This document shows positions 4,700 through 42,852 of a stretch of 49,692 nt of DNA, piece after piece. Where the stretch lies: sequence record MN923124.1. One strand, 5' to 3'. The position numbers were made by a program, and so were the translations under genes. The stretch is from Acinetobacter phage LAPP1. Below the pieces are notes generated by a model. The model searched no databases. It was given only the letters and a program-made list of their open reading frames with translations, and had not been told where the DNA came from. Within the stretch, counting starts at the first letter, position 1; every line of letters begins with the position of its first letter.

Positions 4700-4733
4700 T
4701 AACTATAACCCACCTTGACGCCGCCGTCAACAA
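4700..4733 (-). promoter_or_regulatory. early-type promoter for the island operon. -35 is the perfect palindrome TTGACGCCGCCGTCAA (4715-4730), -10 is TATAGT at 17-nt spacing.
   Basis: Same architecture as 12 other sites. Leader ACAGAAGAGTAGAGAAATG follows. Confidence 0.55.
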
Positions 4734-4735
4734 TT

Positions 4736-4785
4736 GATTGATGATTTCGTCAAGTGTACACTGTAACGACTAACAACCGGAGAAA
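4736..4785 (+). promoter_or_regulatory. divergent promoter for the chaperone/tape-measure operon with the palindrome TTGATGATTTCGTCAA
   Basis: Palindrome at 4736-4751. Leader ACAACCGGAGAAATAACAATG. The -10 is weak (TGTAAC). Confidence 0.4.
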
Positions 4786-4790
4786 TAACA

Positions 4791-5165
4791 ATGTCACTCA
4801 TTAAAACTTTTACCGCAGGCGACATCACCGTGAACGCCGCGATGCCTTCCGCAATTGAGCAGGACGAACTGTTATCCCTGGTGAGCGCACAGTTTATTGC
4901 GCACGCTGCCAACGTTTACAAAAACGGTGGTGAACTCGGTGTCAAAGATGTAACTCTGTTGCTCACCGCTGTACCGCATCACATCAAGCAACGCATTGCC
5001 GAGGTTCTCCTGAGCAAAGCAATGACAGCGGGTACCAACACAAAAATCACGGTGAATGATTTCCCCGGTAAAATGATGACGCTGAATACTCTGCTGGCCG
5101 AATTGTTTCTGTGGGTTTACGCTGATTTTTTCGATTACGTGCAAAACGCAAACAAAGACGAGTAA
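4791..5165 (+). CDS. tail assembly chaperone (G-like, 124 aa)
   Basis: Lies between the tube and tape measure genes. A slippery heptamer sits near its 3' end. Confidence 0.55.
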   Translation: MSLIKTFTAGDITVNAAMPSAIEQDELLSLVSAQFIAHAANVYKNGGELGVKDVTLLLTAVPHHIKQRIAEVLLSKAMTAGTNTKITVNDFPGKMMTLNTLLAELFLWVYADFFDYVQNANKDE

Positions 5166-5374
5166 AGGACACCGGGCGACCCAGCCCGGTCAACTGGTAC
5201 TTTATGCGGGTTTGCACAGGCATCGAGGGAGTGTGCCCACCTTTGTGCACATGGGCGCAGTTAAAAGATGGTACAATATCGCTTGCTGAAGTCGAACAAT
5301 TTCACTTTGCGATGGATGAATTGCAGGGTAAGTATATTGAGGCGATAAACAATGCAAGAAATTCCCCTAAATAA
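4791..5374 (+). CDS. predicted -1 programmed-frameshift product of the chaperone (GT-like, ~194 aa). Slip at T_TTT_TTC (5126-5132), extension to the TAA at 5372-5374.
   Basis: The -1 frame is open from 5126 to 5374 with no stop, while frames 0 and +1 are closed. Matches the conserved G/GT frameshift arrangement of tailed phages. Confidence 0.5.
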
Positions 5375-5648
5375 CGGTGCGGCTAACGCCCATCAGACCT
5401 TCACGGTCAAGCTGGGCGACAACGTTCTCGACTTTGCGCTGGATTACATCAGCTATACCGACAAGCCCGCGTGGACAATGACTGTCTCACAGGATGGTAT
5501 CGACTACATCACCGGTGCAATGCTTGTCCCAAATGCTGAGGTCAGTAAAGCATACCGCGCCGGACTGGGTCGCTTCTTCTTTGTGGGTGATGAGGTAACC
5601 ATTGATAACCTCGGCGTCGATAACCATCTTCTGTGGGTGCCTGAATAA
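5352..5648 (+). CDS. hypothetical tail protein (98 aa)
   Basis: ATG overlaps the end of the frameshift extension. ATGA coupling to the tape measure gene. Confidence 0.45.
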   Translation: MQEIPLNNGAANAHQTFTVKLGDNVLDFALDYISYTDKPAWTMTVSQDGIDYITGAMLVPNAEVSKAYRAGLGRFFFVGDEVTIDNLGVDNHLLWVPE

Positions 5649-6970
5649 TGGCTAACATCATCACGCAGTTCCTCGTCGGTCTCGGCATTTCTTACGATGG
5701 TAAAGGTGCTGAACAGGCTGAAAAAGATATCGACAATCTCGGCAAATCGGCGGAGCAAGCCGGTAGTCAGATGGACGATGTCGGTAAGTCCCTCGACCAG
5801 GGCGTTAAAACCGGCGTAGAAAATTCAAAATCACGTATCATGAGTCTGGTCGCCACATTCAAAGGTGCCGGACTTGCGATGTCCGGTGTTGCCGCGGGTG
5901 TCGGCGCAGCGTGGGCGTTTGAGTCGAAGAAAGCGCAACAGGCTTATGACCTGAACAACCAGCTTGCAACCAGTCAGTTCGGACCAACTGAGGTTTACGG
6001 ACTTGGCGCACTGGCTGAACAGCGTGGCGGCGACCGGCAAGCAACGACAAACAGTCTTTTAAATATTGAGCGTGGGATTAACCGTATTCAGACCGGTGAC
6101 GCCGGGATGATTCAGCAACTGGCGGTTGCGGGAATCCGTGTCGATAATCCCACGGGGCGCACACGCGAAGATATTTACAACGACATTGCCGGACAGTTCC
6201 AGCGCCTCGATACGACGCGTCAGAGCAACGTAGCGGAGGTTTTAGGTCTCGACCCCGCTACCGTAAGGGTGATGCAAGAATACGGCTCTACAACGCTGGA
6301 CGTCGCCAAAGCTAAAGCCGCTGAACTGGGTTACACTGAGCAGCACAATGCCGCGCTGAACGCAATCAATCAAACTATTCTCGACACGCAGCAGAAAATG
6401 GAAGGGCTGGGTAACACTATTGCCGATATTCTTGCGCCCAGCATTAAAATCCTGGCTGATGACCTGCTGACGCTTGCCAGTGGTGTAACTAACTGGATGA
6501 ACAATCACCGTGACCTCATTGGTGATATCTCCAGTGGCTCATGGTATGACAAGTATGTGGCGGGAAGTGCTGACAAAGCTGCCGCATGGGTTGGTGATAA
6601 AACAGGATTTGACCCCCGGAATGTCGGCAAAAACACGCGGGATTTTCTCAATAATAATGGTAAGTCCGTTAATGACTCGATTATTAACGGTAGTGTAAAC
6701 AACGAACAATTACCCCCGTGGGCAATGGGCGCTAATGACGGTTCATATGGTGCCGAAGCAAGTCCGGTGACCAATAATTACGCACAGCAAAGCCAGCAGA
6801 TGAATCAGATTATGGAGTCCATAAACCGTCCGATTCAGCTCAACGGTAATTTCACTACACAGGGTGACGTAATACTGGACGGTAATGCGATTGGTCGTTA
6901 CACCGTGAATCATCTTGAGACGCAGGTGTATCCACAGGCGATTGACCAGACCCGGCAAAGGAGTTACTGA
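5648..6970 (+). CDS. tape measure protein (440 aa, short)
   Basis: Position after the chaperone. Predicted long helical N-terminal region and Gly/Ala-rich hydrophobic segment. Confidence 0.55.
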   Translation: MANIITQFLVGLGISYDGKGAEQAEKDIDNLGKSAEQAGSQMDDVGKSLDQGVKTGVENSKSRIMSLVATFKGAGLAMSGVAAGVGAAWAFESKKAQQAYDLNNQLATSQFGPTEVYGLGALAEQRGGDRQATTNSLLNIERGINRIQTGDAGMIQQLAVAGIRVDNPTGRTREDIYNDIAGQFQRLDTTRQSNVAEVLGLDPATVRVMQEYGSTTLDVAKAKAAELGYTEQHNAALNAINQTILDTQQKMEGLGNTIADILAPSIKILADDLLTLASGVTNWMNNHRDLIGDISSGSWYDKYVAGSADKAAAWVGDKTGFDPRNVGKNTRDFLNNNGKSVNDSIINGSVNNEQLPPWAMGANDGSYGAEASPVTNNYAQQSQQMNQIMESINRPIQLNGNFTTQGDVILDGNAIGRYTVNHLETQVYPQAIDQTRQRSY

Positions 6971-6972
6971 CA

Positions 6973-41637: not shown

Positions 41638-41668
41638 CTCTCAAACCCTCTCTGTTGTTGATGAACTG

Positions 41669-41698
41669 AGTATACGTCATCCCTGACGAACTCGTCAA
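41669..41698 (-). promoter_or_regulatory. early promoter. Palindrome CTGACGAACTCGTCAA (41683-41698), -10 TATACT at 18-nt spacing.
   Basis: Family architecture. Confidence 0.55.
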
Positions 41699-41728
41699 CT
41701 TAAATATGCGACCCAAATCACAATATCG

Positions 41729-41965
41729 TCACTCCTGTGGCGGCTCCGGCAATGGTTGCCAGTGTGTGATTACTTTGGGATACATCGCACCGTATTCACT
41801 GAATGCGCACCAAAAATCATTACTGCTAGCGGGTCTGATTCCAGCATTACAATCTGTCACTGTTACCCGCTTACCATCCGTAACTAAAACTTCAACCGAT
41901 TCAAATACTTCGACGTCATTTATTGTGAACGGCATCCGCTCACTACACTTAATCCAGTCTGCCAT
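41729..41965 (-). CDS. DUF551-like small protein
   Basis: MADWIKCSERMP N-terminus typical of that phage family. Confidence 0.4.
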   Translation of the reverse strand: MADWIKCSERMPFTINDVEVFESVEVLVTDGKRVTVTDCNAGIRPASSNDFWCAFSEYGAMYPKVITHWQPLPEPPQE

Positions 41966-42143
41966 ACAATGTCCCCACTCGTTTTAAATCGCGCTGTGCG
42001 TGACAGCTGTAATTACCATCGTCCCATTTGACCCAGTACTGCGGTGGGTCATTTGCAACAACATTTTCAACAGTGCCGGTAACGACACCATTGGGGAACA
42101 ACTTCACAAGTGTCCCGGTTGGGTAACGTGGTATGGTTGTCAT
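41949..42143 (-). CDS. hypothetical small protein (64 aa)
   Basis: ATGA coupling. Confidence 0.4.
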   Translation of the reverse strand: MTTIPRYPTGTLVKLFPNGVVTGTVENVVANDPPQYWVKWDDGNYSCHAQRDLKRVGTLYGRLD

Positions 42144-42301
42144 ACGGTGTCCTCGCCGTTAATCCATTTCTGTAGTATTTTGATAAGTTGTTCGGCTTGT
42201 TCCTTGTCGATTTGAATCCATTCTCCAAATTGTTTTAAATCTGCGTTCCTATCTGTTTTTATTGTTATCGCATTGCATTCGTGCGTTTCTTCAATAATCA
42301 T
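42140..42301 (-). CDS. hypothetical small protein (53 aa). Not in the ORF track.
   Basis: Stop/start overlaps at both ends. Confidence 0.35.
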   Translation of the reverse strand: MIIEETHECNAITIKTDRNADLKQFGEWIQIDKEQAEQLIKILQKWINGEDTV

Positions 42302-42777
42302 CACTCACCCTCCGACAGTTCATTAATCAAGCGCTCCAGATACCAGCGGGCCTTTTTCACATCTTCTAGGCCGTTCTTCTCTTCGTAGCGCCACAGGTAT
42401 TTAACAACATTCGCCACGCATACCGCCTCGATACCGGTTTTACCCACCGTGGCGGCAGTGATAGCGTCGATACATTCAATACCACCTTGTGTGTAGTGTG
42501 ACGGGTGATTGACCACGTCATTGGTTGCTACGGGTTCCCGTTGGGCGATGATTTCTATGTTAGAAGTACCGTTAACGTCTCTTTCACCAAGCGTATTGCA
42601 ATTATCAAGACTTGACTCACTAGGCCACCAAATTCTGTCCCCCACACTTTGCAAACCGTTACAGTTTTCCTCGTATCCGATGTCGCCAGTTCCCAACTGT
42701 CTTATCACTTGCTTACACCAGTCCGGCGCACCTTCGAAGTCTTTCTCGTTACCTTTAATGTAGTTCCACGTGGTCAT
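42301..42777 (-). CDS. DUF3310-like protein with an extra N-terminal domain (158 aa)
   Basis: HPSHYTQGGIECIDAI..VKYLWRYEEKNGLEDVKKARWYLERL. Start trimmed to an ATG with an AGGAGA RBS. Confidence 0.45.
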   Translation of the reverse strand: MTTWNYIKGNEKDFEGAPDWCKQVIRQLGTGDIGYEENCNGLQSVGDRIWWPSESSLDNCNTLGERDVNGTSNIEIIAQREPVATNDVVNHPSHYTQGGIECIDAITAATVGKTGIEAVCVANVVKYLWRYEEKNGLEDVKKARWYLERLINELSEGE

Positions 42778-42823
42778 GTTGTATCTCCTGTGAAATATAT
42801 GTATTATGTGTTTAACGATTATC

Positions 42824-42852
42824 ACTATGGCATACTCTGACGGATTCGTCAA
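42824..42852 (-). promoter_or_regulatory. early promoter. Palindrome CTGACGGATTCGTCAA (42837-42852) abutting the scaffold ATG, -10 CATAGT.
   Basis: 17-nt spacing. Confidence 0.45.

Follow-up and report, generated by a model that had tools for sequence, protein, structure and literature searches.

The window considered here is the whole 49,692-nucleotide sequence of Acinetobacter phage LAPP1 (record MN923124.1). Palindromes of 16 bp, of the type TTGACG-N4-CGTCAA, recur within its early promoters, and the plus-strand gene at 28573-28851 codes for a 92-aa TetR_N protein restricted to the helix-turn-helix (HTH) domain, here called mini-TetR, which is the candidate repressor for these sites. The window is ~89-92% identical to Jedunavirus myoviruses of Klebsiella, e.g. 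vB_KleM_KB2 (KB2), BUCT_49532 and IME346. Judging from this comparison, it is a complete, circularly permuted Jedunavirus-type myovirus genome, since the KB2 proteins map across it and one gene is split by its ends. The split gene codes for a SANT/Myb-like DNA-binding protein (1-57 plus 49111-49692, minus strand); together with a winged-helix protein (32870-33994) it is a lineage-specific regulator. The gene expression programme of the Klebsiella therapy phages of the Jedunavirus group is essentially unstudied.

The late structural operons are long and occupy the plus strand; short cassettes of variable small genes, encoded on the minus strand, break them up. The replication module is divergent and extends over ~18.4-31.3 kb, with genes for an exonuclease, an SSB-like protein and polA transcribed leftward, and those for a helicase, a methyltransferase (MTase), a nuclease, mini-TetR and a primase transcribed rightward. 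The gene content of the cassettes differs between the window and KB2, and the flanking promoters are retained. No lysogeny module is present in the window genome, and no prophage relatives were found among the 185,579 bacterial species genomes searched.

A family of palindromic promoters

A genome-wide family of palindromic sites had been proposed in a preliminary description of the sequence, and its enrichment over shuffled controls is clear. TTGACGNNNNCGTCAA (TTGACG-N4-CGTCAA), with up to two mismatches, has 17 matches against 3.27 +/- 1.73 expected, and 0/100 shuffles reach 17; the exact core TGACG-N4-CGTCA is present in 11 copies against 0.11 expected, or 18 against 2.5 when one mismatch is allowed. 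An unbiased search for 5-mer palindromes of any sequence, with 0-10 nt between their halves, leaves the motif as the sole outlier, both in the window and in KB2. In the window it reaches 11 copies; a one-base shift of the motif itself comes second with 5, and the shuffle maximum is 4. A weight-matrix scan gives the same picture: for a non-circular test, the matrix was built only on promoters of two other phages, PEi21 of Edwardsiella and CP-T1 of Vibrio (14 in total), and it recovers 9 window sites at >=14 bits, compared with 0.05 expected in shuffles.

Eleven sites share a single architecture, TTGACG (TTGACC once)-N4-CGTCA(A/G/T)-7/8 nt-(T/C)AnnnT; they comprise ten of the eleven exact cores and the one-mismatch site ahead of the mini-TetR gene. 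The left half-site is the -35 hexamer (5/6 consensus positions) and is separated by 17 or 18 bp from a -10 element matching the consensus at 4-5 of 6 positions, while the right half-site lies at about -25 to -20. The -10 is a strict TAnnnT, at a spacing of 17-18 nt, in nine of them, the same number as in the preliminary description; the other two have CATAGT and CATACT. These features support the assignment of the sites, predicted from sequence, as sigma-70-type promoters with a palindrome built into the -35 and the spacer. Eight sites are leftward (102, 4715, 18468, 22412, 24874, 39582, 41683 and 42837) and three rightward (26942, 28515 and 31304), and together the eleven head all the minus-strand cassettes and all the units of the replication module. 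Thus, eight sites drive minus-strand units, and probably nine if 9405 on the minus strand is included, rather than the seven first counted. The invariant core is TGACG...CGTCA, and the outermost base is fixed (T) on the -35 side only. The eleventh exact core, at 24931, is found at -8..+8 of a separate near-consensus promoter, indicating that the palindrome does not depend on a -35 and forms a unit by itself.

Position of the sites in the genome

Eleven of the 13 coordinates originally listed are exact. The copy placed at 4736-4751 actually occupies 4738-4753, and no motif is found at 35160-35175, the real copy being at 35149-35164; in addition, two good sites had been overlooked, at 102-117 (minus strand) and at 26942-26957 (plus strand, in the helicase gene).

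In the divergent control region of the replication module, the leftward early promoter TTGACGagtgCGTCAT (24874-24889, minus strand; -10 TAGAGT at 24861-24866; 30.7 bits) drives the genes from 24826 on, the DUF2800 exonuclease among them. The rightward early promoter (24904-24946, plus strand) consists of TTGACA (24904-24909), 17 bp and CATAAT (24927-24932), with 11/12 consensus matches; these elements (24904-24932) drive 24967-25227, the helicase and the downstream genes, and the palindrome ATGACGggagCGTCAA (24931-24946) covers the region from ~-8 to +8, a classic repressor position. An internal promoter, TTGACGcgctCGTCAG-18 bp-TAAAAT (26942-26957, plus strand; -10 at 26966-26971), lies inside the 3' end of the helicase gene and upstream of the MTase gene (27123). 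As previously described, the mini-TetR gene is preceded by a site of its own, the imperfect palindrome TTGACCactcCGTCAA (28515-28530, plus strand; -10 CATACT at 28538-28543). The promoter TTGACGggttCGTCAG (31304-31319, plus strand; -10 TATCTT at 31327-31332) is directly 3' of the primase terminator (31270-31286) and drives a small-gene operon from 31369; its syntenic counterparts are at 40326 in PEi21, at 42000 in Shewanella phage SppYZU01, and at 12707 and 6902 in the relatives L012 and L013. On the leftward side, the perfect palindrome TTGACGcaccCGTCAA (22412-22427, minus strand; -10 TAGTAT at 22399-22404) drives the SSB-like gene (22344-21532) through a hairpin-containing leader. Another perfect copy, TTGACGagtgCGTCAA (18468-18483, minus strand; -10 TAAAGT at 18455-18460; 31.6 bits), overlaps the 3' end of the DNA polymerase gene and drives a small gene at 18422-18216, with a syntenic site at 29072 in PEi21.

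The remaining architecture sites are all on the minus strand. TTGACGgattCGTCAG (102-117; -10 TACACT at 89-94) drives the SANT/Myb-like gene, from a GTG at 57 across the window ends to 49111, and the perfect 16-bp palindrome TTGACGgcggCGTCAA (4715-4730; -10 TATAGT at 4702-4707; 24.6 bits) drives a small-gene cassette from 4670 to ~3501. Three further cassettes are driven from TTGACGgctcCGTCAG (39582-39597; -10 TAGAGT at 39569-39574; cassette 39531-38723), TTGACGagttCGTCAG-18 bp-TATACT (41683-41698; -10 at 41669-41674; cassette 41637 to ~40471) and TTGACGaatcCGTCAG (42837-42852; -10 CATAGT at 42824-42829; cassette 42777-42301). Two plus-strand ATG codons are found just past these palindromes, that of a head protein (39600) 2 nt beyond the first and that of a protease (42854) 1 nt beyond the last.

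Three one-mismatch copies lie 2-3 nt from a -10 and ahead of late operons, and their membership in the family is uncertain. TTGATGatttCGTCAA (4738-4753, plus strand) is 3 nt upstream of TACACT (4757-4762), for which TTGATT (4734-4739) is a better -35, with the late tail-chaperone operon (4791) downstream; the copy is off register and its role is uncertain. ATGACGgtacAGTCAT (35149-35164, core 35150-35163, plus strand) is in the spacer of the late promoter of TerS (GTGGCA at 35143-35148, 18 bp, TAAAAT at 35167-35172). The third copy, at 9405-9420, has TATACT (9424-9429) only 3 nt off on the plus strand. Read on the minus strand, as TTGACActcaCGTCAA-N7-AATTAT (-10 at 9392-9397; 16.0 bits), it fits the main promoter class and aims at a strong terminator (9066-9050) ~335 nt away.

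Some of these control elements overlap small open reading frames (ORFs) annotated in KB2. Homologues of gp26, gp02 and gp87 are found in the window at 24827-24910, 9244-9435 and 4677-4730, all on the minus strand, where they overlap the predicted -35/-10 elements or begin upstream of them. They are probably spurious gene calls; the true starts are likely at 24826 and 4670, with none for the 9405 unit.

Conservation of the palindrome

Orthologous control regions were aligned for five genomes whose TetR-like proteins are 75-100% identical. None of the 30 half-site columns varies, as opposed to 8/12 columns of the N4 (Fisher p = 4e-6), and the upstream flanks are unconserved. At the 24931 operator all 5 genomes have the same half-sites, with GGAG as N4 in four of them and CCAT in the fifth, so that -35 recognition does not account for the symmetry. 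As far as alignments can tell, these data show that the palindrome is selected as a unit, in agreement with the initial proposal that the second half-site goes beyond the needs of a -35, and it is also kept where it covers a start site. In the copy inside the helicase gene, at 26942, the Asp, Leu and Val codons GAC, CTC and GTC are kept in all relatives, down to 47% regulator identity, and a -10 at 17/18 bp follows in most of them.

The motif is not restricted to the genus. The relaxed pattern TGAC-N6-GTCA occurs 13 times in PEi21 (0.84 expected) and 9 times in CP-T1 (0.74 expected), and eight metagenomic lineages have 3.2-4.7 such sites per 10 kb. Placements in other lineages are often syntenic, at the polA 3' end, in the divergent region, after the primase terminator and at cassette borders, and the arrangement is common to relatives infecting Edwardsiella, Vibrio and Iodobacter. 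The hosts of the motif-bearing phages belong to Enterobacterales, Vibrionales and Betaproteobacteria. The GC-rich repeats reported for phages phiPLPE, CP-T1 and 138 (PMC3391216, Table 3) were considered as possible copies of the motif, but they are tandem arrays and are unrelated.

The repeated promoters recall the PeSL elements of T4-type phages, in which a terminator stem-loop is followed by an early promoter and which are proposed to mediate shuffling; neither an operator nor a repressor is part of their definition (PMC2839356, PMC4122927). In both cases repeated early sigma-70 promoters flank hypervariable regions of small ORFs among conserved core genes. One could then imagine that the palindromes mark mobile regulatory cassettes spread by recombination, either having no protein partner or acting as an RNA hairpin on read-through late transcripts. 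Besides the PeSL precedent, this would fit the turnover of cassette genes between retained promoters, the sites placed directly after a terminator (31304, PEi21 40326, and those of L012, L013 and L015) and the late-gene ATGs found 1-2 nt past the palindrome in three genera. The PeSL-type order of terminator and promoter is present at 31270-31332 and at the syntenic sites and not at most others, and what is conserved here is the palindrome in the -35 and spacer. Against a mobile origin, similarity between sites is limited to the half-sites, the -10 and the ribosome-binding site, with N4, spacer and flanks that are unrelated between sites and vary between orthologues, a pattern indicating constraint rather than recent copying. 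As for the hairpin, folding predictions give weak structures of -6 to -8 kcal/mol, with z-scores from -0.7 to -2.0, and in promoter orientation the palindrome is upstream of the start and is not transcribed. This origin is accordingly regarded as very improbable.

The mini-TetR protein

Residues 6-52 of mini-TetR match the Pfam family TetR_N (PF00440; E = 8.3e-7, 29.1 bits, cut-off 24), and only ~35 more residues accompany this HTH domain. A profile search of the PDB with the protein finds TetR-family N-terminal domains only. Canonical TetR proteins, ~180-220 aa in total, have a C-terminal domain for ligand binding and dimerisation, which is lacking in this 92-aa protein; in the structural model the helix equivalent to alpha-4 is followed by three short helices (62-70, 74-77 and 81-91). 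On sequence and model, mini-TetR is best described as an HTH-only relative and not as a canonical TetR member.

An exhaustive HMMER search delineates a distinct family matched over its full length, with 138 clusters (50% identity) at E <= 1e-10. Its members are ~90-115 aa long, apart from a subfamily of ~165 aa (~162-175 aa) in which each protein has two HMMER stretches and which represents tandem duplicates, such as the one of SppYZU01 (L003/L009 38065-38565), the proteins P0136, P0139 and P0141, and others. These duplicates imply that the functional unit contains two HTH domains; they may be natural single-chain 'dimers' and could read asymmetric operators. This large family of ~95-aa HTH-only TetR relatives (at least 138 clusters) would gain a predicted operator, together with natural tandem versions. 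The HTH segment does not vary among relatives that are 75-99% identical, and the same holds for the half-sites.

Link between the palindrome and mini-TetR

In a phylogenetic profile of 18 genomes/contigs, mini-TetR is the sole gene whose presence tracks the motif, so that the 92-aa protein, already pointed out as the candidate regulator in the preliminary description, is the best one available. Ten lineages that carry it are motif-rich, and it is the only HTH protein among the window genes common to the motif-positive phages CP-T1 and PEi21; none of the cassette genes, nor the SANT/Myb-like and winged-helix proteins, is shared with these two. Conversely, mini-TetR is missing from two phages built on the same structural backbone, Vibrio phage 1.263.A (in which minus-strand cassettes occur as well) and Pectobacterium phage ZF40, and relaxing the pattern still yields 0 sites in either.

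Phage phiPLPE is particularly informative. It has a lambda-like replication module and shares no other replication genes with the window, yet it encodes a 30%-identical mini-TetR (gp14), found with the CP-T1 protein as query (the window protein as query finds none). Its motif is a concerted variant, TTGACG-nATn-CGGCAA, with 5 copies against 0.23 expected, three of them in cassette promoters with 17-bp spacing and one 16 nt upstream of gp14. SppYZU01, which shares the replication module only and has a tandem mini-TetR, contains one perfect promoter of the motif type, after the primase gene.

In nearly every lineage with the motif, a copy lies in the promoter of the regulator gene or just upstream of it; the gene is preceded by the motif in the window, in KB2, in L010-L015, L017 and L021-L023, and in PEi21, CP-T1 and phiPLPE, and in L024 two copies lie ~220-250 nt upstream of it, at the head of the transcription unit. 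The own-gene copy usually has a mismatch in the core: TTGACC in the window, TTGACA in PEi21, CGGCAA in CP-T1, CGTCGA in L013 and AGTCAA in L015.

These comparisons lead us to favour, with moderate confidence, a model in which a mini-TetR dimer binds the operators and represses the whole early regulon together. Several observations weigh against it. In the AlphaFold model the pLDDT is 77 overall and falls below 50 at residues 33-40, which include the recognition helix, and a Foldseek search of the PDB with this model gave no significant match (best E = 1.5), a result that is uninformative given the moderate quality of the model. The recognition helices differ among motif-positive lineages (SVNHHW in the window, TVSFAF in CP-T1, IVSYYY in PEi21), all of which keep TTGAC...GTCAA. 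Canonical TetR proteins dimerise through the C-terminal domain that mini-TetR lacks. The motif is absent from phages CKB-S1 and R9Y2, although both encode homologues (27-36% identity), and is limited to 1-2 sites in SppYZU01. Furthermore, every early promoter in the motif-rich genomes has the motif, so that finding it ahead of the regulator gene counts only in part as separate evidence, and most mini-TetR lineages also share the replication module, the two being separated only in phiPLPE.

In Vibrio phage CKB-S1 a different sequence, GCTAGATTAGC, is present in 3 copies against 0.31 expected (L005 36489-36510 and 40825-40835), twice in the divergent early region and once ahead of the TetR-like gene. 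It coincides with the extended -10 region (TAGATT) of promoters of the type TTGAC(T/G)-17-TAGATT and might serve a homologue of other specificity as an operator placed over the -10; the case is ambiguous. A direct repeat of R9Y2, GACAAATTAACA, was discarded as an operator, its 2 copies being not significant.

Some of the same data would also suit a different dimeric protein of the phage, not yet recognised, which binds the palindrome while mini-TetR regulates something else. The cassettes hold many small ORFs of unknown function, the window encodes the SANT/Myb-like and winged-helix proteins as well, and the recognition helix of mini-TetR is poorly conserved between motif-positive genera. However, neither the cassette genes nor those for the SANT/Myb-like and winged-helix proteins are conserved in the motif-positive CP-T1 and PEi21, and close relatives differ in the length and sequence of the gene that opens the rightward operon. 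In addition, phiPLPE has only structural genes and mini-TetR in common with the window, and phages with the structural genes but without mini-TetR have no motif. An unrecognised binding protein is therefore considered unlikely.

The reader of the palindrome might otherwise be supplied by the host. Although the preliminary description rightly noted that CRP and FNR half-sites differ from the motif and recognised no known host site, it overlooked a likeness to the box of RutR, a TetR-family dimer of E. coli that binds the 16-bp palindrome TTGACCAnnTGGTCAA (PMC2475637, PMC2952853). The geometry is identical, TTGAC-N6-GTCAA with the same outer TTGAC/GTCAA, and a TetR-family HTH dimer contacts two successive major grooves, which makes an HTH dimer of this type a natural reader of the phage motif as well. 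Positions +/-4 to +/-8 match; the RutR box is defined by C/G at +/-3 and +/-4 and A/T at +/-5, and the phage motif has G/C in place of C/G at +/-3 and N in place of A/T at +/-2. The mini-TetR protein is a generic TetR_N member (18 bits versus RutR cut-offs of 230-368) and lacks the uracil-binding C-terminal domain; RutR sites, moreover, are mostly far from promoters or intragenic, whereas the phage sites are built into the -35. Orthology to RutR was rejected, since three homologues reach only 16-21 bits with the RutR models, for which the cut-offs are 230-368, and with these models the window protein is unlisted at E <= 1.

Binding by RutR or by a similar TetR-family factor of the host would tie early transcription to host physiology, e.g. 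to pyrimidine status, and several sites do look RutR-like (ATGACCgaccGGTCAA and TTGACCagcaCGTCAA in PEi21, and the half-site TTGACCA at 28515 in the window). Nevertheless, 11/11 perfect window sites have G/C at +/-3, where RutR prefers C/G and where the symmetric change makes binding 12.7-fold weaker (PMC2952853, Table 1). Sites are absent from phages of a Vibrio host and of an enterobacterial host that share the backbone and lack mini-TetR, the motif spans hosts of three bacterial groups, and the concerted, lineage-specific variant of phiPLPE accompanies a divergent phage protein. A host regulator thus appears a poor candidate, with a low probability.

A proposed early-to-late switch

The following scheme would account for the distribution of the sites if mini-TetR is the repressor. 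On infection the host sigma-70 RNA polymerase would fire ~12 strong promoters, serving the replication genes and the minus-strand cassettes, each carrying the operator TGACG-N4-CGTCA with its left half as the -35; a thirteenth copy lies across the start of the strongest rightward promoter. Mini-TetR would be an early product, expressed both from the rightward operon and from a separate promoter with a weaker operator, and as it accumulates the dimer would occupy the operators, excluding sigma region 4 at -35..-20 and blocking the start site at the rightward promoter. Its own promoter, having an imperfect operator, would be shut last, giving negative autoregulation. The protein would then be a timer or feedback brake and not a sensor, because without a ligand-binding domain it should not be inducible. 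Since the cassettes lie antisense inside the late operons, their silencing should relieve head-on conflict and clear the way for late transcription. In this scheme binding by mini-TetR, dimerisation, repression rather than activation, timing and the link to late transcription are inferred.

The opposite sign of regulation, with mini-TetR activating or timing transcription through a contact on the opposite face that stabilises RNA polymerase at the -35, or acting as an anti-silencer, has some appeal, as the -10 elements match only 4-5 of 6 positions and lambda CII acts at TTGC-N6-TTGC sites straddling the -35. Yet a 5/6 -35 at the optimal 17-bp spacing does not look activator-dependent, the regulator would be needed before the genes that it activates, including its own operon, and at the rightward promoter, itself near-consensus, the copy occupies -8..+8, which is the position of a repressor site. 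Activation is consequently given little credence compared with repression.

A more far-reaching role, to which we also assign a small probability, is that mini-TetR and its operators form a minimal switch able to silence the whole genome: with an operator in each early promoter, a two-HTH repressor that needs no ligand could keep the phage quiescent. CP-T1 shows temperate/pseudolysogenic behaviour that is unexplained, without known lysogeny genes (PMC3391216, section 14), and such a switch, if real, would explain it; Jedunavirus phages used against Klebsiella might then enter a carrier state.

For these widely isolated therapy phages, the repressor model offers a testable regulatory map made of ~13 promoters, one operator and one candidate repressor, and an account of how phages with antisense early cassettes in their late operons escape transcriptional conflict. 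If confirmed, it would also provide synthetic biology with a useful compact part, in which repressor, operator and promoter come together and for which nature offers variants of specificity (CGTCA versus CGGCA).

Comparison with other regulatory systems

The closest functional analogues are the Cro and CI proteins of lambdoid phages, small HTH dimers that bind palindromic operators over divergent early promoters, reduce early transcription and are autoregulated. Lambda has 6 operators at two loci, read by proteins of the Cro / lambda-repressor fold; in contrast, the present phage has ~13 operators throughout the genome, one per transcription unit, in a fixed register with the -35 and spacer, and its candidate repressor has the TetR_N fold. 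Mycobacteriophages L5/L1 are similar in having one repressor and many sites dispersed over the genome. Their sites are asymmetric 13-mers, mostly in transcribed regions, that act on elongation in one orientation, whereas the sites described here are symmetric and within promoters; multiple asymmetric operators are mentioned in PMC1934351.

Among host factors, FNR and CRP are likewise dimeric HTH proteins acting on palindromes near promoters, of the types TTGA..TCAA and TGTGA..TCACA. The FNR site is TTGAT-N4-ATCAA (14 bp) and that of CRP is TGTGA-N6-TCACA, both usually centred, for activation, at -41.5 or further upstream. The phage sequence is TTGAC-N6-GTCAA: compared with FNR it has TTGA-N8-TCAA instead of TTGA-N6-TCAA, 2 bp longer, and its centre is at -27.5, and compared with CRP it has the same 16-bp span and a different half-site.

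In the genome papers the gene is merely annotated as 'TetR'. A comparison of dwarf myoviruses notes this gene in phiPLPE, CP-T1 and 138, with no operator (PMC3391216), and no palindromic promoters or mini-TetR regulon are described in the searchable literature on Jedunavirus promoters, TetR-like early repressors of phages and PEi21/MSW-3 promoters. Phage repressor-operator regulons are already known; the new part would be a minimal TetR-type repressor whose predicted operator is fused to the -35 of every early promoter.

Leaders, RNA elements and late promoters

Sequences resembling ACAGAGAGG are found after CA-rich runs downstream of most palindromic promoters, and PEi21 has the same design of CA-rich leader and Shine-Dalgarno sequence. 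With up to one mismatch the enrichment is modest (16 against 6.7 +/- 2.3). The sequence had been taken for a conserved leader tied to the promoters; however, it also precedes internal early genes, i.e. polA (20645), the MTase (27103) and the primase (28860-28876), and it is thus better seen as a preferred early ribosome-binding site.

The leader of the SSB-like gene (22344-21532) contains, at ~22370-22390 on the minus strand, a hairpin GGGAGAC...GTCTCCC that is kept in five genomes, with a compensatory G-C to C-G change, and also an A-T to G-T change, in L011 and L012. This suggests, at the level of sequence covariation, an RNA element ahead of the gene.

On the minus strand at 9050-9386, the promoter at 9420-9392 aims at an intrinsic terminator (9066-9050), and the ~335 nt in between hold no convincing ORF. 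The predicted fold has -131.5 kcal/mol, against -107.2 +/- 6.1 in shuffles (z = -3.95), and Rfam and tRNA scans of the whole window, this region included, gave no match. A structured transcript of ~335 nt, either a non-coding RNA or a short transcription unit, is a candidate product. CP-T1 has the same layout, with a minus-strand TTGACAtgctGGTCAT-N7-TAGATT (L002 38146-38161) that faces an unannotated 326-nt gap before the baseplate operon.

At cassette borders in three genera, the start of the late gene on the opposite strand lies 1-2 nt past the palindrome, as at 39597-39602 and 42852-42856 in the window, 4751 and 19910 in PEi21 (L007), and 23377 and 30679 in CP-T1 (L002). The palindrome therefore falls within the translation-initiation region of the late gene on read-through mRNA; given the weak hairpins, this may simply be tight packing.

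The late operons seem to rely on promoters of another class. Upstream of the two main ones, neck/tail (447) and TerS (35206), a direct repeat of ~140-170 nt is present on the plus strand at 285-420 and 35032-35172, with 90% identity over 79 nt and ~80% further on. It contains an A/T-rich block and a hairpin ATACCCCGTT...CGGGGTAT, followed by GTGGAT or GTGGCA, 17/18 bp, and GATAAT or TAAAAT with a TG extension, and probably represents a separate type of late-promoter or regulatory cassette.

Two further observations concern the replication genes. In one metagenomic relative (L021 5738-8377) the replication helicase contains an intein (Pfam Intein_splicing, PT-HINT). In the window, a 37-nt direct repeat with 86% identity is shared by the DNA polymerase gene (18625-18661) and a gp24-like gene (24368-24404).

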